DNA of 64,000 bases. Source: Candidatus Hodarchaeota archaeon (GTDB taxonomy: Archaea; Asgardarchaeota; Heimdallarchaeia; Hodarchaeales; Hodarchaeaceae). The notes below the pieces were generated by a model, which was given only the letters and a program-made list of their open reading frames with translations, ran no database searches and was not told where the DNA came from. Both the position numbers and the translations under genes were made by a program. Of the stretch, positions 5,279-60,418 are shown piece after piece; position 1 is the stretch's first letter, and each line of letters begins with the position of its first letter. Where the stretch lies: positions 33,962 through 97,961 of the forward strand of contig JAEOTC010000121.1 in assembly GCA_016840035.1 (NCBI GenBank), in the 5' to 3' direction.

Positions 5279-6142
5279 CTACATTCTCTTTTTGAGAAAA
5301 GTGCCGTTCCGATACTCTTCAAATGCTATTCGTAGCTCTTCTTCTGTATTCATAACAATGGGGCCAGCCCATGCAATAGGTTCATTTATCGGCTTTCCTG
5401 AAATTAATAGGAAGCGTACTCCAGTATCCTCATTTGTTGTAACTTGTACAGTTTCTCCTTCTCTTTTGAATATAACTAAATTGTCTTGCTTCGTATATTC
5501 CTGACTATTAGGAGTAAATCGTCCTTTTCCCTCGAAAATATAAGCAAAAACCGTGTATCCATCATTAACTCCATGTTTAAAGGTTACTCCAGGGGGAATT
5601 TCAACATCTAGATAATGAGGTTCTGTAATGATCTCTTTTACTGGGCCTTCGGTTTCTTTATAGTGGCCAGCAAGTACACGTACTTGAGTACCATCTTCTT
5701 CATTTATTACAGGAATGCTAGATGCGTGGATATCTTGGTATCGCGGATCGATTAGTTTTGATACTCTTGGGAGGTTTACCCATAACTGAAATCCTGATAG
5801 CTTTCCTTTTGTTTGTTGGGGCATCTCTTCATGAATAATACCGCTTCCAGCAGTCATCCATTGAATATCACCTTCACTTAAAGCTCCTGAGTTTCCAAGA
5901 CTGTCTTTATGCATGATTAAACCTTCTCGCATGTAAGTAACAGTCTCAATTCCGCGATGAGGATGCCAAGGAAACCCCGCTATGTAATCATTGGGATTGT
6001 CAGATCCAAATGCATCAAGAAGTAAGAAAGGATCGAGTAATTTCGTCTCTTGATGGCTGAAAACCCTTTTTAATTTAACACCCGCCCCATCCATGGTAGG
6101 AATACTTGATTGAATTTTATCAATAGTTCGAAATCTAATCAT
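5279..6142 (-). CDS. pirin-family bicupin protein
   Basis: FPWHPHRGIETVTYMREG ... QWMTAGSGIIHEE matches the pirin N-terminal cupin metal site (HxH...H...E). Confidence 0.85.
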   Translation of the reverse strand: MIRFRTIDKIQSSIPTMDGAGVKLKRVFSHQETKLLDPFLLLDAFGSDNPNDYIAGFPWHPHRGIETVTYMREGLIMHKDSLGNSGALSEGDIQWMTAGSGIIHEEMPQQTKGKLSGFQLWVNLPRVSKLIDPRYQDIHASSIPVINEEDGTQVRVLAGHYKETEGPVKEIITEPHYLDVEIPPGVTFKHGVNDGYTVFAYIFEGKGRFTPNSQEYTKQDNLVIFKREGETVQVTTNEDTGVRFLLISGKPINEPIAWAGPIVMNTEEELRIAFEEYRNGTFLKKRM

Positions 6143-22866: not shown

Positions 22867-23652
22867 ATGGAGAATTCAAAGATGAACCACCACAAAATAT
22901 CTAAAACGCGGATATTCCCTGTAAATACACAGATTCTCACCTTATTTCTAGTAACTTTAGTGATAATTTCTACTATCAGGATAATTGAAGCAAAACCACA
23001 AAAAACTTCGGAAAATATATTGGACGGTGTAATCAGTCAAGATGAATATTCATATTCACAGAGTACGGAAGATGGTAAATTTATTCTTTATTGGGAACCC
23101 ACAGATGAGAATACAATATTCTTCGCAATGCAAGCATTGACAACTGGTTATATGTCAATAGGAATTAACCCTTCTCAGCGAATGAAGGATGCAGATATGT
23201 ATTTCGGGTGGGTAGACTCAAATGGTTCAGTATTCATGATAGATGCCTTTGCAGTTGATGACATGGGTACTCATCCCCCAGATACTGAATTGGGTGGTAC
23301 AAATGATATTCTGGACTATAATGGGAGTGAAAATGCACAGACTACAATTATTGAATTTAAGAGACTAATAGTATCACCTGATTCAGAATATGATAATGCT
23401 ATTCCGATGGTAGGTGAAATCCCCATTATTTGGGCGTATGGAACTTCGGATAATTTTGAAGTTCACCATGGAGTTGTTAGCCGCGGTACAATGTTCTGGA
23501 GTCTAGAAGGGGCAAGTGTATTAAGGTTTGATTTCAGTCAACCCTTTATCTTGGGGCTAGCTTTTCTGATTACTTTAACAGGATTAGTAATCTATGTGGA
23601 TAGCAAAGGTCGTCCTACCAGTAACAACGAGAAGACAAACAGTGGTGAATAG
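22867..23652 (+). CDS. signal-peptide protein with C-terminal TM anchor, first gene of oxidase operon
   Basis: N-terminal hydrophobic signal/anchor and a C-terminal helix LGLAFLITLTGLVIYV. Stop is 2 nt before the subunit III-like gene. Function unknown; possibly an electron donor or DOMON-like. Confidence 0.5.
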   Translation: MENSKMNHHKISKTRIFPVNTQILTLFLVTLVIISTIRIIEAKPQKTSENILDGVISQDEYSYSQSTEDGKFILYWEPTDENTIFFAMQALTTGYMSIGINPSQRMKDADMYFGWVDSNGSVFMIDAFAVDDMGTHPPDTELGGTNDILDYNGSENAQTTIIEFKRLIVSPDSEYDNAIPMVGEIPIIWAYGTSDNFEVHHGVVSRGTMFWSLEGASVLRFDFSQPFILGLAFLITLTGLVIYVDSKGRPTSNNEKTNSGE

Positions 23653-23654
23653 CT

Positions 23655-25100
23655 ATGGCTGAATTACATCCTATCGTTTTACATTTTCATATTGCCAATC
23701 TGGCATTGAGTATCTTTACCTTACTACTTGCAATCACTGTGTCTGCATTTGAGCGAACAGATTTTTTTAATCGAAAGCTCGTAAAAAGAACATTTCGTGG
23801 TAGGGAGCTTTTGAGTCAGCAAACTTGCAGAACGTATGCTGATAAATTTGAATTTGTAGCATTCATGTTTCTTCTTTATGGAATTGTAACTTTTTTTGTA
23901 GCAGGAGTTGCAGGTTTTCTAGATGCCTCAGGAAATATTGGGATTGGGGAAATTAATCTAGATAATCTTCTCTTAGGGATATCAGAAGCAAGTCTCAGCT
24001 CAATACTTGGTTATAAAGTTATATATTCCATTATTGGAGTCTCCTACTTCCTCTTCGCAGCGCTTATCCGCATATATTTTGCCAGTTACCGCAAAGAAAG
24101 AATTTTTTCACAACATCCATTATATTGGATAGTCCTTCTCTTAAGTCAAATTCTTGGTTACATTCTTTTAACGCTCGTTTCTGGAGCTGGAGCAATTAGA
24201 GTTTATGGTGGAACCTTAATTTCTGATATTCCAATCTTTGGGGAGTTCTTACCTAATGGATCACTGGATCCTACCCCCATCGTCCTTTTGGGTACTGTAT
24301 TAATCGTCTTCCTCATTATCATTGCTGGTTTTTCAAAGAAACCTCCAGAAATCGAACCTCCTCACGAAGGAGAGCATGAAGAACATGAAATAACTCTTTG
24401 GCCTGCAGCACTAGCATTCGGCACAGTCTTTGTTGCAGCTGCTATCATTAACTTTACTGATGGCAACGAATTAGCAGCTTTCGGTTTCTTCTGGACATTT
24501 TTTATTGTACTGATTGGTTTCATCTTTAATGAAGCATTTAAACAAGATTTGTTTAGAAGACCACGTGAAGGATGGATTTGGTTATTCCTTGGGAGTGAAG
24601 TGATTCTATTCTCTATGATAATTGGGACAAGTTTCGGTCTAAGAGTTGCGTCTGGGAGTAATTGGCCTGATCAGAGTCAGATTCTAGATATCCCTCTAAC
24701 AGCAATTAATACATTTATCTTAATAATTAGTAGTTTTACTATGGTGAAATCGGTAGATGCAATACAGCAAGGTAAACAAAAGTTATCGCGAGATTATCTT
24801 CTCGCAACTGCGGGATTGGGAACACTATTCCTTGGTATTCAACTAACAGAATATCTAGAGTTGTTTGCACATCATTTTACACCAACTACGAACCTATTTG
24901 GATCCACATTTTATGTCCAAACAGGCCTTCATGGAGCTCACGTATTCTTCGGTGTCCTTCTAGTTATCTTTACAACACTGAGAGCTCATCAAGGTGGATT
25001 TACCAAAGAAAATCACGGCAGTTTAGAGTTAGTTGGGCTCTATTGGCATTTCGTTGATCTTGTATGGATTGTATTATTTACATTAGTATATCTAATATAG
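23655..25100 (+). CDS. heme-copper oxidase subunit III-like protein, extended (481 aa)
   Basis: C-terminus LHGAHVFFGVLLVIFTTLRAH...GLYWHFVDLVWIVLF matches the conserved end of COX III/CyoC. N-terminal half carries extra helices. Confidence 0.75.
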   Translation: MAELHPIVLHFHIANLALSIFTLLLAITVSAFERTDFFNRKLVKRTFRGRELLSQQTCRTYADKFEFVAFMFLLYGIVTFFVAGVAGFLDASGNIGIGEINLDNLLLGISEASLSSILGYKVIYSIIGVSYFLFAALIRIYFASYRKERIFSQHPLYWIVLLLSQILGYILLTLVSGAGAIRVYGGTLISDIPIFGEFLPNGSLDPTPIVLLGTVLIVFLIIIAGFSKKPPEIEPPHEGEHEEHEITLWPAALAFGTVFVAAAIINFTDGNELAAFGFFWTFFIVLIGFIFNEAFKQDLFRRPREGWIWLFLGSEVILFSMIIGTSFGLRVASGSNWPDQSQILDIPLTAINTFILIISSFTMVKSVDAIQQGKQKLSRDYLLATAGLGTLFLGIQLTEYLELFAHHFTPTTNLFGSTFYVQTGLHGAHVFFGVLLVIFTTLRAHQGGFTKENHGSLELVGLYWHFVDLVWIVLFTLVYLI

Positions 25101-25132
25101 AAGAGAAATTGATTGAATGGGTGAAATAAAAA

Positions 25133-25786
25133 TTGAAAATAAAAACCAAAGTCTCGCTAGCTAGTGTACTATTTGGATTATTCTTTGCAGGACCAGTTAT
25201 TTCAGGGAGAGCTTCCACGGCTCAATCTACATATACCTCTCAGATTGAGTTTTTATTCCTCCTTGTTGTGCTGGTATCAATTTTAATTGCTTCTATAGTT
25301 TTTGGATTATTGATATACATAATAATCCGCTTTAGAGAAGGAAACACAAATACTGTAAGAAAACCGATCCAAAACGGAATGCGCTTGGAAATCGGTTGGA
25401 TAATATTCGCCACGATAATTGTAGTTTCCCTCTTTGCTGCAAGCTTACCCGCAACTAGTTCGTATTTTACAGAGCGAGATGATTATGACGAAGAAATCCG
25501 TGTTGTTGCATATCAGTATAACTTCACATTTACCAAAGAAAATGGGAATACAACAACAGGATTTGTCGAAATTGAAGTAAATAGAGTATATATGCTTAAT
25601 ATTACTTCTATCGATGTAATACATTCATTTTATGTCCATGAACTGAGTATAAAGCTTGATATGGTTCCAGGGCGTTACAATATTGTATATTTGCAAGTTC
25701 TGGTGCCGGGAACTTATGAAGTTCATTGTGCGGAATATTGTGGATTTGGACACTATATCATGGAAGCGAGGATAATCGTAAAGTAA
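25133..25786 (+). CDS. heme-copper oxidase subunit II (CuA)
   Basis: Two N-terminal helices plus a cupredoxin domain with CuA ligands H...CAEYCGFGHYIM. Apparent TTG start. Confidence 0.85.
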   Translation: MKIKTKVSLASVLFGLFFAGPVISGRASTAQSTYTSQIEFLFLLVVLVSILIASIVFGLLIYIIIRFREGNTNTVRKPIQNGMRLEIGWIIFATIIVVSLFAASLPATSSYFTERDDYDEEIRVVAYQYNFTFTKENGNTTTGFVEIEVNRVYMLNITSIDVIHSFYVHELSIKLDMVPGRYNIVYLQVLVPGTYEVHCAEYCGFGHYIMEARIIVK

Positions 25787-25802
25787 ATAAGAGGAAATTA
25801 AT

Positions 25803-27482
25803 ATGAGCTCTCACAGTAGTATAATTAAAGACGGTCAATTCAAACTTTTTCCGCTCTTTGTAGGCATTCCGTTTGCAATAATTGTATTCATAGTTTTGAA
25901 GATTTTACTTGGTTCTTTTGGTTTCATACCAGAATTAGTTTTCTTATCTATTCTTAGTTTCACAATTTATTTGTCCACTTATGATAAAATTGATTATATT
26001 AGATTAATTGGAACCACAAATCATGCTGAAATTGGTATTCTGTATATTCTTTTAGCTATCGTAAGTGTATTTATTGGAGGGACGCTAGCTATAATCATGA
26101 GAACTGAACTGGCTTTTCCGGGTGCTACACTTGTAGATTCGGAACTGTATTCAGTTATTTTTACCGCTCACGGTACAATTATGATATTTATGGTTATTTT
26201 CCCATTAGGTGCAGGTTTTGGTAATTATCTTGTTCCTAGATTAATAGGAGCACCTGATATGTATTGGCCTAGGTGGAACAACGCAGCTTTATGGCTGCTA
26301 ATCCCTTCAGGGGTTTTAATCTTTACTGCACAATCGTCTGTGGGTTGGACATTGTACACTCCTTTAAGTGCTGAACTCTGGGGTGTGGGTGTAGATATGT
26401 GGATTATAGGAGTATTACTTGCGGGTGTTTCCTCTTTAGTGTCTGCGATTAATTTCATTATGACTGTTGCTACCATGCGTAAACCTGGATTGACATGGGG
26501 GAAGCTAGATCTTTTTAGTTGGTCCATTGTAGCCACATCAATTATCCAATTATGTGCCACTCCCTTAATAACAACTGGACTCGCTCTCTTACTCTCAGAT
26601 CGTATATTGGATACAGCATTCTTCTCAGCAGTAGGATTTGGAGTAGGTTCGTTTTTATGGCAACATGTGTTCTGGAGTTATTCTCATCCTGCGGTTTATA
26701 TTATGATTCTTCCTGCGATGGGATTAACTTCCCTTATGGTTTCAAAGTTTTCTAGAAATGAAATCTTTGGATACGAGCTAATGGTAATATCTATGATGGC
26801 TATTGTCTTTCTTGGTTTCCTAGTGTGGGGTCACCATCAGTATACTCTTTATGGTGCAGCCACAGATGCGTTTACAACCACCTTGTTCTCCTTATTAACC
26901 TCATTAATAGCTGTACCTTCGGGAGTCAAAACTTTTAATTGGCTATTTACAATGTGGGGAGGTAATGTCAAGTTAGAGATCCCGATCGTGTTTCCGTTTG
27001 GTTTCATTATCGGGTTCGTCATTGGAGGAATAACTGGGGTTTGGTTGAACATTGTTCCAGTGGATATAATTGTTCATGATACAGCATTTGTGGTGGGTCA
27101 TTTTCATATGATCATTTTAGGAGGAGCACTTACTGCGCTTATTGGTGCCTTCTATAATTATTTCCCCGAAATAACTGGGAAAATGTATAATCGACCCCTT
27201 GCTTGGGTTCATTGTATCATGTGGATCATTGGTTTTTTGATAACATTTAATTCTATGATGATAGCAGGATTACATGGAATGCCTCGTAGATATTTCGATT
27301 ATTCAACATTTGGTAATGTTGATGTTCTCGCGTTTTGGAACTTTTTAGCGACCGTAGGTGCATATTTGATGTTCCTCTCTGGTGTAATCTTTGTAATCAA
27401 CATGATTTACAGCTTAAGTAAAGGTCCAGAAGCAGGCGATGATCCATTTAACCTATCACTTGATGAGGTCCCCACAGTTTAA
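25803..27482 (+). CDS. heme-copper oxidase subunit I
   Basis: WSYSHPAVYI, W..HHQYT (CuB His pair), HDTAFVVGHFHMII (heme a3/heme a His), and about 12 TM helices. Confidence 0.9.
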   Translation: MSSHSSIIKDGQFKLFPLFVGIPFAIIVFIVLKILLGSFGFIPELVFLSILSFTIYLSTYDKIDYIRLIGTTNHAEIGILYILLAIVSVFIGGTLAIIMRTELAFPGATLVDSELYSVIFTAHGTIMIFMVIFPLGAGFGNYLVPRLIGAPDMYWPRWNNAALWLLIPSGVLIFTAQSSVGWTLYTPLSAELWGVGVDMWIIGVLLAGVSSLVSAINFIMTVATMRKPGLTWGKLDLFSWSIVATSIIQLCATPLITTGLALLLSDRILDTAFFSAVGFGVGSFLWQHVFWSYSHPAVYIMILPAMGLTSLMVSKFSRNEIFGYELMVISMMAIVFLGFLVWGHHQYTLYGAATDAFTTTLFSLLTSLIAVPSGVKTFNWLFTMWGGNVKLEIPIVFPFGFIIGFVIGGITGVWLNIVPVDIIVHDTAFVVGHFHMIILGGALTALIGAFYNYFPEITGKMYNRPLAWVHCIMWIIGFLITFNSMMIAGLHGMPRRYFDYSTFGNVDVLAFWNFLATVGAYLMFLSGVIFVINMIYSLSKGPEAGDDPFNLSLDEVPTV

Positions 27483-27508
27483 TAAAGTAACCCTAGGAGA
27501 TAAAAAAG

Positions 27509-27850
27509 ATGGTAACACAAGTTGAAACACAAGATACTCATGAGTATATTAAACGGCCGTATTTCTTAGTTTTTCTAATGCTGGGGTTTTTGACGGTTCT
27601 TGAACTGAATGTTGGATTTATTTCTGATATAGCAGGAGAAGGATCAAATGTTGAGGGATTTATTAATTTAGCGCTAATTACATTAGCAATTCTCAAAGCT
27701 TATCTTGTTGCTGCATTTTTTATGGGAATTAAATATCAAGATAATCCCAAGGTGGTTTGGGGGGTAATGTTTGGGATTCCTATGTTCATAGCATTACCAG
27801 TAGTTGTAATCCCTGCCTTAGGGACAATTGTCTATCTTTGTGGAATATAA
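27509..27850 (+). CDS. small 3-TM membrane protein, possible oxidase subunit IV-like
   Basis: 113 aa, three helices, placed between subunit I and SCO1 as prokaryotic subunit IV genes are. Confidence 0.45.
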   Translation: MVTQVETQDTHEYIKRPYFLVFLMLGFLTVLELNVGFISDIAGEGSNVEGFINLALITLAILKAYLVAAFFMGIKYQDNPKVVWGVMFGIPMFIALPVVVIPALGTIVYLCGI

Positions 27851-27877
27851 TATAAAGTGTATAATCGATGTGTAGGT

Positions 27878-28546
27878 ATGGAACAAAGCACTGTAGTCGG
27901 AACAATTATAGGATTTATGATTCTAGCTGGAATTGGGTCTGCTTTCATCCTCTATCCCTTAAGTCAAAATCAAGTATTACCCGTTATTAAACCCGCACCA
28001 GAATTTAGCTTAGTAAACCAGGATAATGAAACTGTGGACTTACAGTCATTTTCAGGAAAGGTTATAATGCTGGGTTTCCTTTATACTCAATGTACTGATG
28101 ATTTATGCTCACTGATGACTCAAGATTTCAAAACACTCCAAACCTTACTTGGATCCTCATTTGGTATGGATACTATGCTTATTTGTATTTCATTAGATCC
28201 ATTATTTGATACTCCTACGGTATTAAGAAACTACGCTCTATCCAATGGGGTTAATCTAAGTGGGTGGCAATTTCTGACGGCCTATGAATTAGATACAATC
28301 CAAAAGGTTGTTGATGATTACGGAGTGTTGTCTTATGTCAATGAATTTGAGGGATTGGTAAATACAACTGAAAATAACACCACCTTCAATCTAAAGATCA
28401 GTCATGGTAATGATACTCAACCGAGTATCCTAATCCATTCTTGGGTGAGTATGCTAATAGATCAAGATCTTTTGATACGAAAGGTATATACTCGTGTAAG
28501 CTGGGTTGTGAGCGCTGCACTTGAGGATATGAGGAGTTTATTGTAA
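27878..28546 (+). CDS. SCO1/SenC-family copper chaperone (thioredoxin fold)
   Basis: N-terminal anchor, CxxxC motif YTQCTDDLC, and ISLDPLFDTPTVLRNYA as in SCO1/SenC. ORF opens with GTG at 27857. Confidence 0.7.
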   Translation: MEQSTVVGTIIGFMILAGIGSAFILYPLSQNQVLPVIKPAPEFSLVNQDNETVDLQSFSGKVIMLGFLYTQCTDDLCSLMTQDFKTLQTLLGSSFGMDTMLICISLDPLFDTPTVLRNYALSNGVNLSGWQFLTAYELDTIQKVVDDYGVLSYVNEFEGLVNTTENNTTFNLKISHGNDTQPSILIHSWVSMLIDQDLLIRKVYTRVSWVVSAALEDMRSLL

Positions 28547-31334: not shown

Positions 31335-33077
31335 TTGAAATCCTCTAAAGACCTTACAGATGAAAGTTCAGACACTGGATTGGATTTTATCCGAAAAATA
31401 GTGGAAGAAGATATAAGGAATAATAAAAATGAAGGACGAGTTCACACGCGTTTTCCTCCTGAACCAAATGGTTGGATGCATATCGGACATGCAATGGCAA
31501 TCTATCTCAGTTACAGCATTGCACAGGAATATAGTGGCCTTTTCAATTTACGCTTCGATGATACCGACCCATCAAAAGAAAGTATGGAGTATGTTGAAGC
31601 AATTAAAGAGGATATACAATGGTTAGGGGCGGATTGGGAAGATAGATTATATTTTGCATCAGATTATTTTGAAAAATTATATGATTTTGCCGTTGGGCTT
31701 ATTAAAGCTGGCAAAGCATATGTATGTGACCTAAATGTCGATGAAATTCGAGAACAAAGAGGATCTTTAACAGAACCGGGTGTTAATAGCCCCTTTAGAG
31801 ATAGATCAGTCGAGGAGAATCTTGACTTATTCAAGCGTATGCGTGAAGGTGAGTTTGAAGATGGTTCTCGAGTTTTAAGAGCAAAAGTGGATATGGCATC
31901 GCCAAACTTACTTATGCGAGATCCTATCATGTATCGGATAAAAAGAGTAAGTCATTATCGGACTGGAGATGACTGGATAATTTATCCTAGCTATGACTAT
32001 ACTCATGGAGAGTCTGATGCGATTGAAGGAATTACCCATTCTCTATGCTCACTTGAGTTTGAAACCCATAGACCATTATACGACTGGTTTGTAGATGAAC
32101 TACTAGCCATAGGTAAAATAGAACATAAACCCAGACAAATAGAGTTTTCTCGCTTAAATGTAACGTATACTATCACAAGCAAACGAAGACTATTAGAATT
32201 AGTCGACGGGGGGTACGTTTCTGGCTGGGATGATCCAAGAATGCCGATTCTTGCGGGATTGAGGAATCGTGGTTTTCCAGCAAGTGCTATTAGAATGTTC
32301 TTAGGAAAAGTGGGTGTGACTAAAAGGAAAAAGAATATTGATATGGGTCTATTAGAAGCCTGTGTGCGGGAAGAATTAGATCGTGATGCCAACCGTGTAA
32401 TGGCTGTTTTAAACCCATTAACAGTTATTCTTACCAACTATCCCGAAGGACAAGAGGAATATTTAGAAATACCTAATCATCCAAAAGATGAATCACGAGG
32501 TACTCGTAAAGTCCCGTTTTCAAAAGTCTTACTGATTGAGCGAGACGACTTTATGGAGGATCCTCCAAAGAAATTTTATCGACTAACGCTAGGTAGAGAA
32601 GTTCGATTACGAAATGCATACTTTATTAAATGTAATGATGTTGTTAAAGACAAATCCGGGAATATCGTTGAAGTTCATTGCACCTACGATCCTGAAACGA
32701 AAGGTGGATCTGCTCCTGATGGCAGAAAGGTGAGAGCTACAATTCATTGGGTGTCTAAATCGCATGCTCTTAAATCAGAAATTCGATTATACGATCGATT
32801 ATTTACCCGTGAAGACCCGATAGGGATTTCTGATTATAATCCGGACTCTTTAACGACAATTACTGGTTTTGTAGAACCTAGTGTAGGTGAAGCTGAACCT
32901 GGCACGCATTATCAATTTGAAAGACTAGGGTACTTCTTCACGAATTTACAGGAGTTCTCTAAAGACACGATTGTAATAAATCGAACCATAACGTTGCGTG
33001 ATACGTGGGCCAAAATCAAGAAACAACATTTATCAACAAGAAAGAAGGGTCAACGAAAACAAAAGAAAAAGAACTAG
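31335..33077 (+). CDS. glnS: glutaminyl-tRNA synthetase, bacterial type
   Basis: Collinear with E. coli GlnRS over the whole length as recalled from memory: [17 protein letters not shown] (HIGH), [78 protein letters not shown]. Apparent TTG start. Extra K-rich C-terminal tail. Confidence 0.9.
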
Positions 33078-33632: not shown

Positions 33633-33710
33633 TGGCAGCCCCATCCAGATTTGAACTGGAGTCATCAGATTCAGAGCCTGAGGTGCTAAACCAAACTACA
33701 CTATGGGGCT
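33633..33710 (-). tRNA. tRNA-Gln (anticodon CUG), CCA encoded
   Basis: Reverse complement folds as a cloverleaf. Acceptor AGCCCCA/TGGGGCT, D-stem GTGT/GCAC, anticodon stem TCAGG/TCTGA, loop CU-CUG-AA, T-arm TCCAG-TTCAAAT-CTGGA, discriminator G, then CCA. An oligo-T tract follows the 3' end. Confidence 0.85.
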
Positions 33711-33753: not shown

Positions 33754-33860
33754 TGGCAGCCCCGTCCAGATTCGAACTGGAGTCGAGAGGGTCAAAGCCT
33801 CTTATGATTTTAAGACTTAAGCCCAGTCCAAGCTTAAGTTAGCCTCTACACCACGGGGCT
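33754..33860 (-). tRNA. tRNA-Gln (anticodon UUG) with about 31 nt of non-canonical intron sequence, CCA encoded
   Basis: Acceptor AGCCCCG/CGGGGCT, T-arm TCCAG-TTCGAAT-CTGGA, anticodon arm AGAGG-CUUUGAC-CCTCT. 49 nt lie between position 9 and the anticodon stem where about 18 are expected, so the extra sequence is in the D-arm region and not at 37/38. Confidence 0.7.
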
Positions 33861-34115
33861 ATAGCAATTTTGTGTAAATTTTACCTTTGATTGGTTGAAA
33901 TAATGACCTCTATTTAAATATTATTTCCAGATAGGAAGAATTATGAAATTTTATGTGACTTTCGAATTATTTATTGAACTATATTTTTGTCGTAACTTCT
34001 GAGTTTTAAGTTGTTGTATTATTGTAGAGTGAGTTAATCAGTATTATCACTTGTAGAAACCTTTTTCGCATAAGAATACATAAAAGAAAATTAAGGAAGG
34101 CTTAATTTGAGAACG

Positions 34116-43496: not shown

Positions 43497-44600
43497 ATGT
43501 CAGATACACGTGAAGAATCAATTAATGCGGGAAGATTTCTCGTAGTTGGGACACAAGCTGGTGGAAAAACAGCCTTAGTTACGAAACTAGCAGCACGTAC
43601 GGATCAATCAATGAGATATGAAGAAGATTTCGGAGGAACAATCGAGACAGAATACTTACGAATATCATTCGATGAAGGAAAATTCTTCAGTTTATTGTTA
43701 CCAGTGGGAGGACAGGAAAAATGGCAAAAATTACGTGAACGATTTGGTAGTACTGCAGAAGGAATGATAGTCATATTAGATTCTTGCACTAAGAAGTTTT
43801 GGGTTAACTCTTTATCACAAGCATCTTCCATCTCTTCCTTTTTACCTTATGATAATTATCCAATTGCTGCGGTTATTACAAAACGCGATTTAAACGATGT
43901 TATTCGAAAAGAAGCTGAAAATTTCGCTCAAGCTATTATGGAGGGATTAGAACAGGCTAAGACCGCTCCAATCGTGTATTATAGTCGTGGATTTCGGATT
44001 ACCGAAAGGAAAATCCACCTCTTAAGCGATGTTCTACCATTCACAACTCTAGAACAAGTGATTGTCAATAGTCTTGAATCCAAGTATTTCTCAAACTTGG
44101 TTCCAGGTAATGCCCAACAAGGGAAAGTCCTACTTCCTGGTTTTAGTTTAGTAAATTGTCGAATTTTTAGTCGTGCATTAACTCAAGAGTTATGTACTTC
44201 TACAGGAGGGGATCAAATGCAGGTACTCAGTTTATTGAATGATATGCGTCCGAGTATGCTCGAATTAGATACGAGTTGGGTAGATTTACTCCAGAAATAC
44301 CCTAAAGCAGGTGCAGAACCTCAAGTAAATATGGCTGAATTATCAGTAGATGTAATAAAAAAGGCAATACTGAACAATCTGTTAGCCAGTGAAACTGATA
44401 TCAATAATTTTACATCAGAACTTAAAACTCTCTCTTCCAAAACTGGATGGAAAGTTAGTGGTCACGAACATCTATCAATTTTTGAGGAAGAAGGATTAGA
44501 ATCAGGGGCCGCTCTTATAAATCAGATGATGGTAGATGTAAAAGAAAGTGTACGAGTAGACAAGTTTAATCTCTTCAATCCTATTGAAGAGTTATTCTAG
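43497..44600 (+). CDS. divergent small-GTPase domain protein with about 190-aa C-terminal extension (Rag/Gtr- or Roc-like?)
   Basis: P-loop GTQAGGKTAL, switch-I Thr (GGTIETEY), G3-like LPVGGQEKW (compare DCGGQ of Rag GTPases), and G4-like ITKRDL. Confidence 0.65.
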   Translation: MSDTREESINAGRFLVVGTQAGGKTALVTKLAARTDQSMRYEEDFGGTIETEYLRISFDEGKFFSLLLPVGGQEKWQKLRERFGSTAEGMIVILDSCTKKFWVNSLSQASSISSFLPYDNYPIAAVITKRDLNDVIRKEAENFAQAIMEGLEQAKTAPIVYYSRGFRITERKIHLLSDVLPFTTLEQVIVNSLESKYFSNLVPGNAQQGKVLLPGFSLVNCRIFSRALTQELCTSTGGDQMQVLSLLNDMRPSMLELDTSWVDLLQKYPKAGAEPQVNMAELSVDVIKKAILNNLLASETDINNFTSELKTLSSKTGWKVSGHEHLSIFEEEGLESGAALINQMMVDVKESVRVDKFNLFNPIEELF

Positions 44601-52339: not shown

Positions 52340-52629
52340 CTCTAATGGGTGAGTAATATACTATGTCAATTAATTTCGAATTGACTGTATGGAGTCGGCG
52401 ATTTTATTGGGTTTTTTATTTCTATTGTAATAAATTACAGCAAATTCAGCTTCAAATTGGAAATATATATCAGCAGGAAGATCTTTGGATAATAACATAG
52501 GTTATATCAGTAATACTCAATTACAGATATGGTACTTGATAATTATATAATCCGCTCAAGAGATCATTATAAGTGAGAGGAAAAGGGTCAAACATACCTG
52601 AGGAAGAATACATCGTGTCACGAGCAAAA

Positions 52630-53241
52630 ATGGACTTTGCTGAGGGAGTATTCCGTACAAATTTCAAGGTATGTGTGATTGGTGATGGAGGAGTAGGAAA
52701 AACCGCCCTTATCCAGCATTTATTGGGGAAAGAATTTTCCAGTAATTATTTACTGACCATTGGAACTGACATTTCCACCTTTCAGCTGGAACACAATGGT
52801 AAAATACTGAGTCTCCAGCTATGGGATCTTGCGGGACAATCACGGTTTGATGTCATTCGGAATATGTATTTTAGCGGTGCACGTGCCGGCGTACTTGTAT
52901 TTGATCTTACAAGACAAAATTCGTTACAATCATTGTCAAAATGGAAGGATGAGATTTTTACATACTCTGACAGAAAAATTCCAATCCTTCTTCTCGGAAA
53001 TAAATCTGACCTTAAAGACTCTCATTTTCCCTTTCTTGAAATGGTTGAAGGATTAAAAAACGAAATCGAACAGGAATACAATATAGTTTATGAAAATAAC
53101 CAGATCACCGTTCCATTTTTTCCCACTTCAGCAAAAACTGGTGAAAACGTTATCGAAGCATTTGAAGCTTTAGGGCAGGAACTACTTACTTACCAAAAGC
53201 AATTTACAATACTACAGAAGAAATCTCAAGAAGATTCGTAA
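52630..53241 (+). CDS. Rab/Ras-like small GTPase
   Basis: G1 GDGGVGKT, Rab-like switch I YLLTIGTDI, G3 WDLAGQ, G4 GNKSDL, G5 TSAKTGENV.EAF. GTG at 52573 gives a 19-aa longer form. No C-terminal prenylation Cys. Confidence 0.85.
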   Translation: MDFAEGVFRTNFKVCVIGDGGVGKTALIQHLLGKEFSSNYLLTIGTDISTFQLEHNGKILSLQLWDLAGQSRFDVIRNMYFSGARAGVLVFDLTRQNSLQSLSKWKDEIFTYSDRKIPILLLGNKSDLKDSHFPFLEMVEGLKNEIEQEYNIVYENNQITVPFFPTSAKTGENVIEAFEALGQELLTYQKQFTILQKKSQEDS

Positions 53242-55792: not shown

Positions 55793-58700
55793 TTGAGAAA
55801 CCCGTTTGAAATAATTGCAGATATAAATCAATCATATAAGAAATTTACTATTCCATTTGTTCTAATTTTAACCATCATGTTTGTACCTCTTGCTTTAAGA
55901 GGTATAGCAGCAACTAATGCTGATTTTGCAACATTTCTTCCACAAAATTTGGAATCAAGCCATGCTGACCAAATACTTGCCGAAGAGTTCCCAGATCAAT
56001 CAGAATCTAGTATTGTAATCTTACTCCAGAGTAAGAATGAGTCACTGGATATCTATAATGAACAGATTATTTCACTAATTCAGGATCTAGATTCAGGACT
56101 TGAAACTGAGGAAGATATTCCAGAGGTGAATTTGACCTCTTGGGTGTCATTGGAAGATAATGTGCAAGAAATTTTCCAAGAAACAATAATAGATCTCCAA
56201 TTAATGATTGCTGAGAACATGATACCGATATTGAATGATTATCAAGGTAATATCTCCATGATGAAGGAATTACTAGGTGAATTCACCATCTTAGCGAAAT
56301 CCATTGAATTATTTTCCCAGATGTTAGATTTTTACTTATTAACGTATTATGACTTTGCGAGGAGCATCTATTATCTTTCAAATCAGACAAATGCGTATGA
56401 ATCATATTTCCGTTCATCTGATTATAGTCCTCTTTATTCAGTTTGGGACAATACAACAGGAGAACTTAATCAACTTATGGTCCTTCAGGTATATCTGGCT
56501 ACATTCGATGTGATAGACCCACTGCTAATGCCCGATTTTATGATGGATGGATTGCTGAATGATTTAGTTTTAGGTTTTTTTAATCAATCAATGGGAAGTG
56601 TTGTGCCAGCTCCCTATATTCCTGCAGTCAATCAGCTTCTACTCCTTTTAAATAGTACTTGGAGTACGAACTTCGCTATTGAAACTCCAACTAACCAGTC
56701 CATGTATGGAGTTTTGGATTATTCACCAATCCCAACAGTTAATCAACTTCAACAACAATACATGCTTGGCCGATTAGTAAATGTATCGGTCTTAACTTTA
56801 AGTGATTTATTCACAGCAATTATGGCCGATCCTCAATTACAATCAAGTTTAGAATCCCTCCAAGACGTATTGGATTTGTCTGGAGATTTAATTCCAACAG
56901 TAAATAGTTCATTTATGGAAAGTTTGCATGATGCCCCACTTCAATATATGGGGTTATGGTTTGACCTTTCACGAGCAATCTATTATTTAAATAACGCTAC
57001 TGCAGCTTACCAAGATGGATTAAATAGCACTCATCTTGATATTATAAATAATACATGGGCTGGAGCACTGTACGGATTACCTAACCAAGATTATACTGTT
57101 TCAGCCTTAGCCTATACTTCAACAAGTATGCCAATTCCCCCGTCTGGATTCCCTCTCGGGGTAATAATGTCAACCAATTCTACCCTTGCAGACTCTACTA
57201 CTGATGATATAGTGTTTAATATCTTTAATGGTACTGCTTTTCAACAGTGGGCAATTGAGAACCCTGGGGATCTTCCAGGTTACTTCCAATCACAGGAGTA
57301 TCAATCTCTCCTTGTTTTAAGAGATACTTGGGCAACTTTTAGAGGAATATCTTCTCTTATAAATAATCCATTGTTTGGTGATTATGTTGGGATTCCTCCT
57401 GGAACTCCACTTGCAGAATTATCTCAGTTGGGTGTTATGGATCGATTGATGGACATTGCTAACTCTACATTCCAGGTTTATGCGAGTATGCTCTTTAGTA
57501 GTATGAACTTCAGTGAATCTGGAGTACCTCTTTCCTTGAAGATTGCGGAAACGGAATCGCTTAACTCGATAACTGAAGCTATAGGATTGACGATAAAGAA
57601 CGAAACAGAGCTACAGACCTTCGTAACACAGTTATCGGCTGGAATACTCACTCAATATATTGCTGATATTCCTATCAATATTTCAATCCTAACTACGGCA
57701 TTAAACACACAAATTATTCCATTGGCAGTGTTATATCGAGATTCCGGATTCCCAGATCAAGTTCTCCAAGATATTATTGTGAATCTGTTTATAACAATCC
57801 TTCAAAGCACTGATTTAACCTCATTTTTCGATCCCACCATGTTTGGAGAAACTGATCTTGGATCGTATGAGTTCAATATATCACAACTATTAACCTCGAT
57901 CAATTTCACAACACTAGTCGAAAATCTCTACCTTTCAACCATTCCTGGAAGCAATGTTACTACCACACTTATTGCAGCAGGAATCAGTCAAGGATTAATA
58001 TCGCAAATTACTTTAATTATTCCTGAACCAACGATTCACACCCTCCCTAATGCTGTAACTAAATCACTGATTTCTGCGGATAATAAAACCACTTTATTGG
58101 TAATTTCTTTCCCAAACAATGGTGAGGAAGAAAGTTATTCAGATTCTGTGGAAGCAATTCGAACATTGTTGCACCAGGTAGTTGTTGAAAATGATCTTGA
58201 GGATGATCTCGACTATTGGGTAACTGGGGGACTAGCCCAGTTATATGATAGTTCACACTCGATCAATGAGGATATTGAAACAGTGGATATCGTTGCAGTA
58301 ATATTAGTTGTATTACTCCTATCTCTCGTATTTCTAAGCATTATTGCACCAGTTATACCCTTACTGGCTATTGGTATTGCAATCGTTGAAGCTATTGGTT
58401 TCGTGTTTATTATTGTGACATTGGGTAGTCAAGAAATTCCTACATTGATGTTGGCACTCCTCTCTGTTACTATGCTCGGAGCAGGAGTTGATTATTGTCT
58501 GTTTATTTTATGGCGTTACAAGGAAGAACGACAATATGGACGGAACAGATATTTAGCAATCCGAGAAGCCACAATTCATGCAGGTGAATCTGTGGTATCA
58601 TCTGGTTCAACAGTTATGATTGGATTTGGTAGTCTTCTTCTATCAACATTTCCATTACTTAATCAACTCGGTTTAGGACCGATGGTTGGAATTGCGTTTT

Positions 58701-60418
58701 CACTGTTAGCTGCTTTGACGATTATTCCAATTTTTCTACATTTACTTGGAGATAAAGCATTTTTTCCACGTAATTTTGCGAAAGATTACGATAAAAATCG
58801 TGAAAGGATTCGGGCGGAGATTAAAGCCGAGAAAGAAGGCCGTAGGAGCGAGAATAAACCCCGTCGCTTCTCAATTAAATGGATGAGTCACTGGACAGTT
58901 AAACATCCTTGGCCTGTTATTTTAGCCTTCCTCGCAGTCACTGCATTCTTTGGTGTGAAAATGCTTGACATTCGTGTAAGTTACGACACCGCGGATCTAC
59001 TCCCTCTAAATGTGGAGTCCATGGATGGTTTTCAAGCAATGGAAGGTAACTTCCCCAAAGGCCAGCTGTACCCAATTAAGATCGTCTTAAAGTTTGAGGA
59101 TCCGCTTTCTGCCCCAACTGATCCGATGTATGACCTGACAAAGCTACAGCAGATAGAATCTTTTGCACAGGCTATAGAGCAAGAATTCAGATTAACATCA
59201 GGTGGAGAAACATTGGTTAGCCAAATTAATACGGTAACAAGGCCTAATGGAGTACCCATTAATTTCTCTGAATCCCTTGATCCGTTAACATTTGGATTAC
59301 TAACTCAATTTGTTGGTCCTACCACTAACACTACCGTTGTTCTTGATGTGGTTATGGATGTTGACCCAATAGGCGGTGAATCCCTTAGATTTGTTGGTAA
59401 TCTTCGTTTATTCGTGGAGGAATACCAAATCGACAATGAAGGAACCGTTTTTGGGACTCAGGACTTAGAAATAGTCATTGGGGGTACCACTGCACATTTC
59501 AAGGATATGTCAGAAATAATCGAACGCGAAACTCCCATGATCGTTGCTTTTGTATTGATAGGGATCTTTATTGTCTTATATCTGATAACTGGCTCACTTT
59601 TTACACCTATTCGCTTAGAACTGACTATTCTAATGACAGTTATCATCACGCTGGGTGCTAGCCAAATTTTCTTTGTAGAGTTCCTTGGTTATGGAATCTC
59701 ATGGGTAATGCCGATAATGTTATTTGTCTTAATCTTTGGATTAGGAATGGACTATGACATCTTCATTATCACACGAATGCGTGAAGAAGTGGCACTACGA
59801 GGATTATCAGATGAAGATGCAATTTTAGAAGCATTAGATAAAAGTTCAACCATTATCACAGCAGCAGGCCTTATCATGGCTTCTTCATTGGGCTCTCTCT
59901 ACGTAGGTGATTCGGCTATCCTTAAATTATTTGGTTTTGCATTTTTCGTAGGAATTTTATTAGATGCTACTCTTGTAAGGCAGTTACTTGTCCCTGCTAT
60001 CATGGTAGTTGCTAAAAGAGCCAATTGGTGGAATCCAATCAAAGCGCTACAGCGAGTACCTAGTGAAGAAAAACGAGAATGGATCCGTGAAGCTCAACTA
60101 GAGAAACTCGAGCAAGAACATAAACAAAAAGATCTAACTGATAATCAGTTGAAAGAATTCCGAGGAAAGATGAAAAAGTATTGGAAAGAAGTCTCAAAAC
60201 TTGAGAAAATGCGTAAAGAGATGTCAGACGATGAATATCTTAATAATTTGTCAAGAGTTGAGAAATCTATTAGGAATCTACCCCGTAATGTCCGTCAAAC
60301 TTTTATTCTCGATGTTCGAAGATTGATTGGGAAAATTGAGAAGTTACGTGACAAGACTGCAGGGAAGATCTACAATACGATCGAAATCGATAATCTCAAA
60401 TTTAAACTGGAGAAATAG
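55793..60418 (+). CDS. giant MMPL/RND-superfamily membrane protein (1541 aa)
   Basis: N-terminal TM1, then an ~800-aa extracytoplasmic domain and TM cluster 1 with the MMPL motif GAGVDYCLF. A second ~330-aa extracytoplasmic domain precedes TM cluster 2 with GLGMDYDIF, followed by a ~115-aa coiled-coil tail. Apparent TTG start. Confidence 0.8.
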   Translation: MRNPFEIIADINQSYKKFTIPFVLILTIMFVPLALRGIAATNADFATFLPQNLESSHADQILAEEFPDQSESSIVILLQSKNESLDIYNEQIISLIQDLDSGLETEEDIPEVNLTSWVSLEDNVQEIFQETIIDLQLMIAENMIPILNDYQGNISMMKELLGEFTILAKSIELFSQMLDFYLLTYYDFARSIYYLSNQTNAYESYFRSSDYSPLYSVWDNTTGELNQLMVLQVYLATFDVIDPLLMPDFMMDGLLNDLVLGFFNQSMGSVVPAPYIPAVNQLLLLLNSTWSTNFAIETPTNQSMYGVLDYSPIPTVNQLQQQYMLGRLVNVSVLTLSDLFTAIMADPQLQSSLESLQDVLDLSGDLIPTVNSSFMESLHDAPLQYMGLWFDLSRAIYYLNNATAAYQDGLNSTHLDIINNTWAGALYGLPNQDYTVSALAYTSTSMPIPPSGFPLGVIMSTNSTLADSTTDDIVFNIFNGTAFQQWAIENPGDLPGYFQSQEYQSLLVLRDTWATFRGISSLINNPLFGDYVGIPPGTPLAELSQLGVMDRLMDIANSTFQVYASMLFSSMNFSESGVPLSLKIAETESLNSITEAIGLTIKNETELQTFVTQLSAGILTQYIADIPINISILTTALNTQIIPLAVLYRDSGFPDQVLQDIIVNLFITILQSTDLTSFFDPTMFGETDLGSYEFNISQLLTSINFTTLVENLYLSTIPGSNVTTTLIAAGISQGLISQITLIIPEPTIHTLPNAVTKSLISADNKTTLLVISFPNNGEEESYSDSVEAIRTLLHQVVVENDLEDDLDYWVTGGLAQLYDSSHSINEDIETVDIVAVILVVLLLSLVFLSIIAPVIPLLAIGIAIVEAIGFVFIIVTLGSQEIPTLMLALLSVTMLGAGVDYCLFILWRYKEERQYGRNRYLAIREATIHAGESVVSSGSTVMIGFGSLLLSTFPLLNQLGLGPMVGIAFSLLAALTIIPIFLHLLGDKAFFPRNFAKDYDKNRERIRAEIKAEKEGRRSENKPRRFSIKWMSHWTVKHPWPVILAFLAVTAFFGVKMLDIRVSYDTADLLPLNVESMDGFQAMEGNFPKGQLYPIKIVLKFEDPLSAPTDPMYDLTKLQQIESFAQAIEQEFRLTSGGETLVSQINTVTRPNGVPINFSESLDPLTFGLLTQFVGPTTNTTVVLDVVMDVDPIGGESLRFVGNLRLFVEEYQIDNEGTVFGTQDLEIVIGGTTAHFKDMSEIIERETPMIVAFVLIGIFIVLYLITGSLFTPIRLELTILMTVIITLGASQIFFVEFLGYGISWVMPIMLFVLIFGLGMDYDIFIITRMREEVALRGLSDEDAILEALDKSSTIITAAGLIMASSLGSLYVGDSAILKLFGFAFFVGILLDATLVRQLLVPAIMVVAKRANWWNPIKALQRVPSEEKREWIREAQLEKLEQEHKQKDLTDNQLKEFRGKMKKYWKEVSKLEKMRKEMSDDEYLNNLSRVEKSIRNLPRNVRQTFILDVRRLIGKIEKLRDKTAGKIYNTIEIDNLKFKLEK

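Follow-up and report, generated by a model that had tools for sequence, protein, structure and literature searches.

A tRNA-Gln(UUG) gene of a Hodarchaeales archaeon with a probable 32-nt intron in the D-loop

Introduction

CAA codons, which need tRNA-Gln(UUG), make up 70% of the 292 glutamine codons in 17 open reading frames of the DNA studied here, a 64-kb stretch of an archaeal contig that is referred to as the window. A gene for this tRNA is located at 33860..33754 on the minus strand and comprises 107 nt including an encoded CCA; no second copy was found within the 64-kb window. Is this overlong gene functional, and what is the nature of its surplus sequence? The initial annotation had contrasted the 107 nt with the 78 nt of the neighbouring tRNA-Gln(CUG), a difference that is borne out by the sequence and by ARAGORN (78 nt), and had offered two readings for a surplus of about 31 nt, namely two short introns on either side of a D-arm or a single intron inside the D-arm. 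The known non-canonical intron sites include position 20/21 (PMC4090602), and other Asgard classes are rich in non-canonical as well as multiple tRNA introns (PMC11291895). A literature search directed specifically at tRNA introns in Hodarchaeales found no paper.

Results

The 107-nt gene and its recognition by standard tools

The two tRNA genes of the locus are:
33754..33860, minus strand: tRNA-Gln(UUG) with its putative intron; CCA at 33754-33756, anticodon UUG at 33793-33795; assigned from the sequence and the orthologue alignment
33633..33710, minus strand: neighbouring intronless tRNA-Gln(CUG), 78 nt with CCA; called by ARAGORN, 57.6 bits with the Rfam tRNA model

The tRNA-Gln(CUG) gene follows 43 nt downstream of tRNA-Gln(UUG) on the same strand. 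Read along the minus strand, the 107 nt are AGCCCCG-UG-GUGU-AGAGGCUAACUUAAGCUUGGACUGGGCUUAAGUCUUAAAAUCAU-A-AGAGG-CUUUGAC-CCUCU-CGAC-UCCAG-UUCGAAU-CUGGA-CGGGGCU-G-CCA, in which the acceptor stem, the anticodon arm and the T-arm are all intact. Sequence and orthologue alignment thus agree with the initial annotation that the anticodon arm is undisturbed and that the surplus lies at a non-canonical site between position 9 and the anticodon stem. ARAGORN left the 107-nt gene uncalled in the window, and the Rfam tRNA model gave no match to it at the gathering score (29 bits); at a permissive threshold the unspliced gene was matched in part (25.6 bits), and the 5' end of this match was spurious. The minimum-free-energy fold of the 107-nt single strand is not a cloverleaf. 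An independent Logan assembly of run SRR14699980 contains the identical sequence of the gene with its insert, so that the insert is no assembly artefact of the metagenome-assembled genome. This allele has been seen in one population only.

Comparison with orthologous loci

Orthologous loci were retrieved from related contigs with the glutaminyl-tRNA synthetase (GlnRS) and the downstream rhodanese/MBL protein as anchors, the former being:
31335..33077, plus strand: GlnRS; NCBIfam glnS equivalog, 691 bits; synteny anchor

The closest GlnRS homologues come from Hodarchaeales (81-82% identity), followed at 63-70% by proteins of Hodarchaeales, Hodarchaeota and Heimdallarchaeota; bacterial GlnRS proteins share about 60-65% identity, which suggests a bacterial origin of this GlnRS. 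In the closest relatives the gene order is GlnRS, PNPOx (minus strand), tRNA-Gln(CUG) and tRNA-Gln(UUG) (both minus strand), and rhodanese/MBL. The pairing of GlnRS with tRNA-Gln is kept out to relatives with 70% GlnRS identity, and GlnRS stands beside both tRNA-Gln genes across the loci of Hodarchaeales and Heimdallarchaeia (L081-L088, L094). Upstream of GlnRS the window contains genes for DOMON, COX3, COX2, COX1 and SCO1, a cox-SCO1-DOMON-GlnRS neighbourhood that has been described for Hodarchaeales (bioRxiv 10.1101/2024.07.04.601786), and two Ras-family GTPases are encoded elsewhere in the window. Because of the GlnRS homologues, this cluster and the GTPases we assign the contig to an Asgard archaeon. 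The rhodanese/MBL protein likewise has its closest homologues in Hodarchaeales/Heimdallarchaeota, so that the archaeal rather than bacterial origin proposed in the initial annotation is confirmed.

In L081-L084, L085, L090 and L094 (Heimdallarchaeota B3_Heim) the tRNA-Gln(UUG) gene is uninterrupted and 75 nt long, with the sequence AGCCCCG UG GUGU AGAGGCUA UCAU A UGAGG CUUUGAC CCUCA CGAC UCCAG UUCGAAU CUGGA CGGGGCU G CCA; no interruption is seen either in L088 and L087 (CP070695.1, a complete genome of 4.9 Mb), which are more distantly related, and overall the intronless orthologues in related contigs of Hodarchaeales and Heimdallarchaeia measure 75-76 nt. The D-arm GUGU-AGAGGCUA-UCAU is base-for-base identical in seven intronless orthologous loci (five distinct sequences), all of which run through ...GUGUAGAGGCU AUCAUA... 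without a break and keep the GlnRS-linked synteny. Among the matches listed in a GlnRS search of genome contigs, nearly all loci were labelled bacterial (about 60% identity) and no useful orthologues emerged; a metagenome search with a gapped pattern for intron-bearing alleles gave no match, and one with a 3'-half pattern gave one further intronless orthologue, L090. Where DNA was at hand, the more distant rhodanese/MBL homologues (P0127, P0132) had other neighbours and no adjacent tRNA.

Aligned with its orthologues, the window gene equals the orthologous tRNA plus one contiguous block of 32 nt:
33841..33860, minus strand: exon 1; 5' strand of the acceptor stem, U8 G9, D-stem 5' strand GUGU and D-loop A14-U20a (AGAGGCU)
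33809..33840, minus strand: putative intron of 32 nt, AACUUAAGCUUGGACUGGGCUUAAGUCUUAAA, at D-loop position 20a/21 (between U20a and A21); the only contiguous block that is absent from the orthologues
33754..33808, minus strand: exon 2; A21, D-stem 3' strand UCAU, A26, anticodon arm AGAGG-CUUUGAC-CCUCU, variable loop, T-arm, acceptor 3' strand, G73 and CCA

With a slash at each junction, the gene reads GUGU AGAGGCU/A ... A/UCAU, followed by A and the anticodon arm AGAGG CUUUGAC CCUCU; a shift of the intron by one base (21/22) gives the same spliced product. In the sequence alignment the insert is a single block with these boundaries and is absent from relatives, so that the alternative reading of the initial annotation, a single intron inside the D-arm, proves correct, and its estimate of about 31 nt of intron-like sequence holds in kind and is corrected to 32 nt against the 75-nt intronless orthologues. 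Exon 1 is identical to positions 1-20 of the intronless L081, L085, L090 and L094. The sole difference of exon 2 from these four is a compensatory swap in the anticodon stem, A27-U43 in the window against U27-A43; the A27-U43 state is also present in L087/L088. Removal of 33809-33840 leaves a 75-nt sequence that equals the intronless orthologues save for this one compensatory pair and that ARAGORN calls as tRNA-Gln(ttg). The Rfam tRNA model assigns 56.9 bits to a near-identical intronless orthologue against the 25.6 bits of the unspliced window gene. The heptamer AGAGGCT, which had been noted as duplicated at both sides of the intron, does occur twice (pre-tRNA positions 14-20 and 59-65); one copy represents the D-loop and the other the 5' side of the anticodon stem, and both are unrelated to the intron borders, since the intronless orthologues show the same likeness of D-loop and anticodon stem (AGAGGCU and UGAGGCU).

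As an intron locator we also tried an ARAGORN deletion scan (all starts, 8-49 nt). More than 1000 deletion variants were accepted; for this reason the scan cannot place the intron, and only the orthologue comparison does so.

Predicted splice-site geometry

The bulge-helix-bulge (BHB) layout used here, with cuts after the second base of two 3-nt bulges and a 4-bp helix between them, was derived from the canonical 37/38 case and agrees with the description in PMC4090602. Two pairs of cuts restore the orthologous sequence, and one of them has BHB geometry. Its elements are:
33843..33846, minus strand: central helix, 5' strand; exon bases G15 A16 G18 G19 (GAGG)
33840..33842, minus strand: bulge of the 5' splice site, CU/A (C20 U20a/A); three unpaired bases between the central helix and the hairpin
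33815..33839, minus strand: intron hairpin, outer helix h', ACUUAAGC(UU)-GGACU-(GG)GCUUAAGU; 8 Watson-Crick pairs and 2 G.U pairs
33811..33814, minus strand: central helix, 3' strand; intron bases CUUA, immediately contiguous with the hairpin on its 3' side, which BHB geometry calls for
33808..33810, minus strand: 3' splice site, AA/A (A21), directly after CUUA; the surrounding loop is not closed to a 3-nt bulge

The 5' cut would fall after U20a, between 33841 and 33840, and the 3' cut presumably between 33809 and 33808, where the exact cut positions carry a one-base sequence ambiguity. The intron hairpin (8-10 bp, starting one base past the 5' junction) is present in the minimum-free-energy and in the centroid fold and appears as H3 of at least 8 bp in the BHB scan. 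The central helix GAGG:CUUA forms three of its four pairs (G-C, G.U, A-U) with a G/A mismatch at the outer end, and the outer helix on the exon side is nearly absent (H1 = 1 pair), which is why the 3' site lies in a larger loop. The BHB inspection proposed in the initial annotation thus finds a motif at the junctions of the single intron, of the relaxed kind: a strict hBHBh' motif, which demands four base pairs in the central helix, 3-nt bulges on the two opposite strands and, on either side, an outer helix of 2 bp or more, is absent, and because of the mismatch in the central helix and the missing exon-side helix the motif falls into the relaxed HBh'/BHL class (relaxed criterion HBh'/hBH/BHL), with one site in a 3-nt bulge and the other 4 bp away on the opposite strand. 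A fold that combines this motif with the acceptor, D, anticodon and T stems has a predicted energy of -34.3 kcal/mol against the minimum free energy of -37.6. When the insert was shuffled with the exons held fixed, 560 out of 200,000 sequences (0.28%) reproduced the geometry, as did 1 of 31 circular rotations.

The top motifs of a generic BHB scan over the 107 nt have formally better scores; excision at these motifs would take away part of the anticodon arm or keep the hairpin, and the products are not tRNAs. Since better-scoring motifs lie elsewhere in the 107 nt, the motif score alone would not identify the intron. Other kinds of insert were considered and rejected. A self-splicing group I or group II intron has a catalytic core of hundreds of nucleotides against the 32 nt found here, and there was no Rfam intron match at E <= 1; for a C/D-box guide RNA inside the intron, 32 nt are too short and neither a CUGA nor an RUGAUGA box is present; and an attachment-site duplication by an integrative element is contradicted by the lack of a duplicated tRNA 3' half and of a large insert.

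A second insert in a sister lineage

The same gene is interrupted at another point in L086, L091 and L092, which represent one sister lineage from two JGI samples and carry a 35-nt insert, ACCAGGUGUAGAGAUUAUCUACGCUCUGGGUGAAA, after G15 (15/16):
L086 5360-5469, minus strand: tRNA-Gln(UUG) of the sister lineage with its 35-nt insert; identical in L091 and L092

This insert has no sequence similarity to the window intron. Its hairpin has 11 bp and is separated by 1 nt from the junction-compatible cut on its 5' side and by 6 nt from that on its 3' side; AAA again makes up the 3' bulge, and three of four pairs form in the central helix, all three of them G.U. The geometry test is passed by 0.5% of shuffled sequences and by 3 of 34 rotations. 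As the unrelated sequences of the two inserts share the spacing that is measured by the splicing endonuclease, both are most likely introns, and we regard this as the strongest internal argument. Nine nucleotides of the sister insert (GGTGTAGAG) additionally repeat the spliced exon junction (GGUGUAG/AG) without a mismatch, a length reached by 29 of 5000 shuffles, and the arms of its hairpin resemble an inverted duplication of the segment at the exon junction. The 9-nt copy hints at a de novo origin of the L086 intron by local duplication instead of transposition of an existing intron. Copies of exon sequence inside the window intron did not exceed chance.

With respect to gain or loss, the GlnRS of the window lineage shares 81-82% identity with those of three sister lineages, which share 84-85% among themselves, and all four lineages show about 70% identity to the intronless outgroup (L087, L088). 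These pairwise identities place the window lineage slightly outside the three others, two of which are intronless. Given different positions, unrelated sequences and an intronless outgroup, two independent recent gains are the most parsimonious solution, and the window intron was presumably acquired recently in its own lineage. The complete proposition, that one gene independently and recently gained two unrelated introns in sister lineages of Hodarchaeales, at 20a/21 and at 15/16, is put forward tentatively and with more doubt than confidence. The window intron occurs once in the window (no further copy with up to 3 mismatches), and no copy was found in viral contigs; no further copy turned up in two metagenome searches either, and these searches together give no sign of transposition from another tRNA.

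Discussion

The comparison with relatives and the geometry of the junctions are best explained if the locus is that of the syntenic tRNA-Gln(UUG), in an Asgard archaeon of the Hodarchaeales, and if the gene carries one protein-spliced archaeal intron of 32 nt in the D-loop, between U20a and A21, a reading that we hold to be very probable. Cleavage and ligation of the precursor are proposed by analogy with known archaeal systems. In the precursor the acceptor, anticodon and T arms would fold normally and the intron would form its own hairpin of 8-10 bp. The intron segment CUUA, just 3' of this hairpin, could then pair with G15-G19 of the D-loop (GAGG), by which the 5' junction would be left in a 3-nt bulge (CU/A) and the 3' junction in an A-rich loop (AA/A). 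An Asgard (alpha-beta)2 splicing endonuclease with a broad-specificity L1 loop presumably cuts after the second base of each bulge, after which the exons would be joined by a ligase of the RtcB type. The predicted product is a tRNA of 75 nt (72 + CCA), ...GUGUAGAGGCU-AUCAUAAGAGG..., with a D-arm identical to that of the intronless relatives. According to Kaneta et al. (PMC5829648), the (alpha-beta)2 EndA encoded in Asgard genomes, that of a Heimdallarchaeote included, has the L1 loop to which broad specificity is due, and in experiments a relaxed HBh' intron is spliced from D-loop position 20b/21 of Methanopyrus kandleri tRNA-Glu. No gene for EndA or RtcB/ligase was found among the 47 window ORFs scanned, and the presence of these enzymes rests on the literature for other Asgard genomes.

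A gene that standard tRNA finders reject and whose BHB motif is imperfect might also be a pseudogene inactivated by the 32-nt insertion, with CAA being read by another tRNA-Gln(UUG) gene elsewhere in the genome, and the search for such a second copy covered the 64-kb window. However, every stem outside the insert is intact, the exons differ from those of the closest relatives by no more than a compensatory pair in the anticodon stem, and the insert has an endonuclease-type geometry that 99.7% of shuffled sequences lack. The gene has also kept its encoded CCA and a T-rich trailer, and its upstream region contains a conserved element, which may be a TATA/BRE promoter:
33911..33927, minus strand: A/T-rich block GAAATAATATTTAAATA, putative promoter, 51-67 nt upstream of tRNA-Gln(UUG); conserved upstream of the orthologues in L086, L081, L085 and L090

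Furthermore, a tRNA-Gln(UUG) beside GlnRS is the syntenic copy in every relative examined, and the prevalence of CAA among the glutamine codons speaks for a functional decoder. Taken together with the identical independent assembly, these features make a pseudogene unlikely.

We consider it more improbable still that the 32 nt are retained and that the mature tRNA carries them as an expansion segment, an extra hairpin emerging from the variable beta region (20a/20b). Such a tRNA is conceivable in so far as both inserts (20a/21 in the window, 15/16 in L086) occupy the two length-variable pockets of the D-loop with their extra bases pointing outward, G18 and G19 are preserved, and the D-loop of the neighbouring tRNA-Gln(CUG) also varies there, from 8 to 11 nt. 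Yet each insert is confined to one lineage and missing from close relatives, and the two have unrelated sequences, as befits mobile or neutral introns rather than a functional expansion; the shared offsets of 1 nt and 6 nt between junctions and hairpin are predicted by endonuclease recognition and would be unneeded in a structural expansion; and D-loop introns at 20b/21 have been spliced experimentally in other archaea. We know of no cytosolic tRNA that retains a 25-nt hairpin in its D-loop. Least credible of all, with a probability close to nil, is the first reading of the initial annotation, according to which two introns of about 16 nt each flank a D-arm AAGC-UUGGACUGG-GCUU. These strands can indeed pair and the loop contains GG, but the proposed loop lacks A14 and A21, the AAGC...GCUU segment is absent from all orthologues and represents the hairpin of the intron itself, and the segments that would be discarded (GUGUAGAGGCUA and UCAU) are the conserved D-arm of the seven intronless orthologous loci. 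The single contiguous insert, without a middle exon in any orthologue, refutes that reading.

A single D-loop intron in tRNA-Gln(UUG) would most closely resemble those of Methanopyrus kandleri pre-tRNA-Glu(UUC) (20b/21) and Aeropyrum pernix pre-tRNA-Thr(UGU), which are likewise short, located in the D-loop next to position 21 and of the relaxed type with one well-formed bulge (PMC5829648). Efficient removal of these two introns needs the broad-specificity (alpha-beta)2 EndA (PMC5829648), and by the same likeness this is predicted for the window intron. In contrast to both, the host is an Asgard archaeon of the Hodarchaeales, the tRNA is that for glutamine, the intron has another sequence and it is known from sequence alone; moreover, the M. 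kandleri tRNA has a canonical intron in addition, whereas tRNA-Gln(UUG) of the window has the D-loop intron only. Introns of Thermoproteales and of the Asgard Atabeyarchaeia and Freyarchaeia are similar in being of BHB type at non-canonical positions, including 20/21, and in being often lineage-specific, which has been read as recent gain or transposition (PMC4090602; PMC11291895). In those groups, however, 70-95% of the tRNAs contain introns, often several per gene, whereas one of the two tRNAs visible in the window does so and most relatives have none. Compared with the canonical hBHBh' motif at 37/38, the presumed enzymology (EndA cutting after the second bulge base, ligation by RtcB) and the spacing of helix and bulges are the same, but the D-loop takes the place of the anticodon loop as the site, three of four pairs form in the central helix and the exon-side outer helix is missing. 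Relaxed D-loop introns at 20/21 are already known in other archaea, and there is no new mechanism here.

The practical consequence concerns gene finding: as ARAGORN and the Rfam tRNA model at default thresholds miss the gene, the genome would seem to have no tRNA for CAA, i.e. for 70% of its glutamine codons in the window, and a tRNA-Gln(UUG) missed in this way is of consequence when the completeness of Asgard metagenome-assembled genomes is estimated or when they are screened for codon reassignment. Near relatives present one gene in what appear to be three states, intronless, with an intron at 15/16 and with an intron at 20a/21, and would thus offer a dated, small-scale case of intron turnover in Hodarchaeales. 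The two inserts may also serve as natural relaxed-BHB substrates for the specificity of the Asgard splicing endonuclease. The two parallel gains, if true, would show an ongoing gain of tRNA introns in that archaeal order which is placed nearest to the eukaryotes.

Further observations on the window

Both tRNA-Gln genes have A1-U72, which we take to be the archaeal tRNA-Gln type. The D-loop of tRNA-Gln(CUG) differs in length among close relatives, with 11 nt (AGUUUGGUUUA) in the window (33633-33710, minus strand), 10 nt in L086 (5242-5318) and 8 nt in L081 (6272-6346); the extra bases lie in the same two variable pockets as the putative introns of the UUG gene. CCA is encoded in the window copy of tRNA-Gln(CUG) and not in the copies of the relatives.

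The window has a G+C content of about 35%. Other features observed in it are:
22867-28546, plus strand: terminal-oxidase cluster of DOMON, a 481-aa COX3 ORF, COX2, COX1 and SCO1; matches the aerobic-respiration neighbourhood of Hodarchaeales
43497-44600 and 52573-53241, both plus strand: genes of Ras/Roc/Arf-family small GTPases, typical Asgard 'eukaryotic signature' proteins
31664-31930 and 32003-32437, both minus strand: two ORFs within the GlnRS gene, in antisense to it (88 and 144 aa)
5317-5373, plus strand: sub-threshold match to the Rfam ClpQY_promoter model (E = 0.043; 28.5 bits, threshold 42 bits), within or bordering a Pirin gene on the opposite strand
55793-60418, plus strand: very long ORF of an MMPL-family transporter, 1541 aa, with two MMPL stretches

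The antisense ORFs are most likely non-coding shadows of the GlnRS frame, and the ClpQY_promoter match is almost certainly a chance match in an archaeon. The COX3 match is confined to the C-terminal 170 residues of its ORF, the N-terminal part of about 300 aa being without a Pfam match, and in the GTPase encoded at 43497-44600 (367 aa) the match is restricted to the N-terminal 150 residues.
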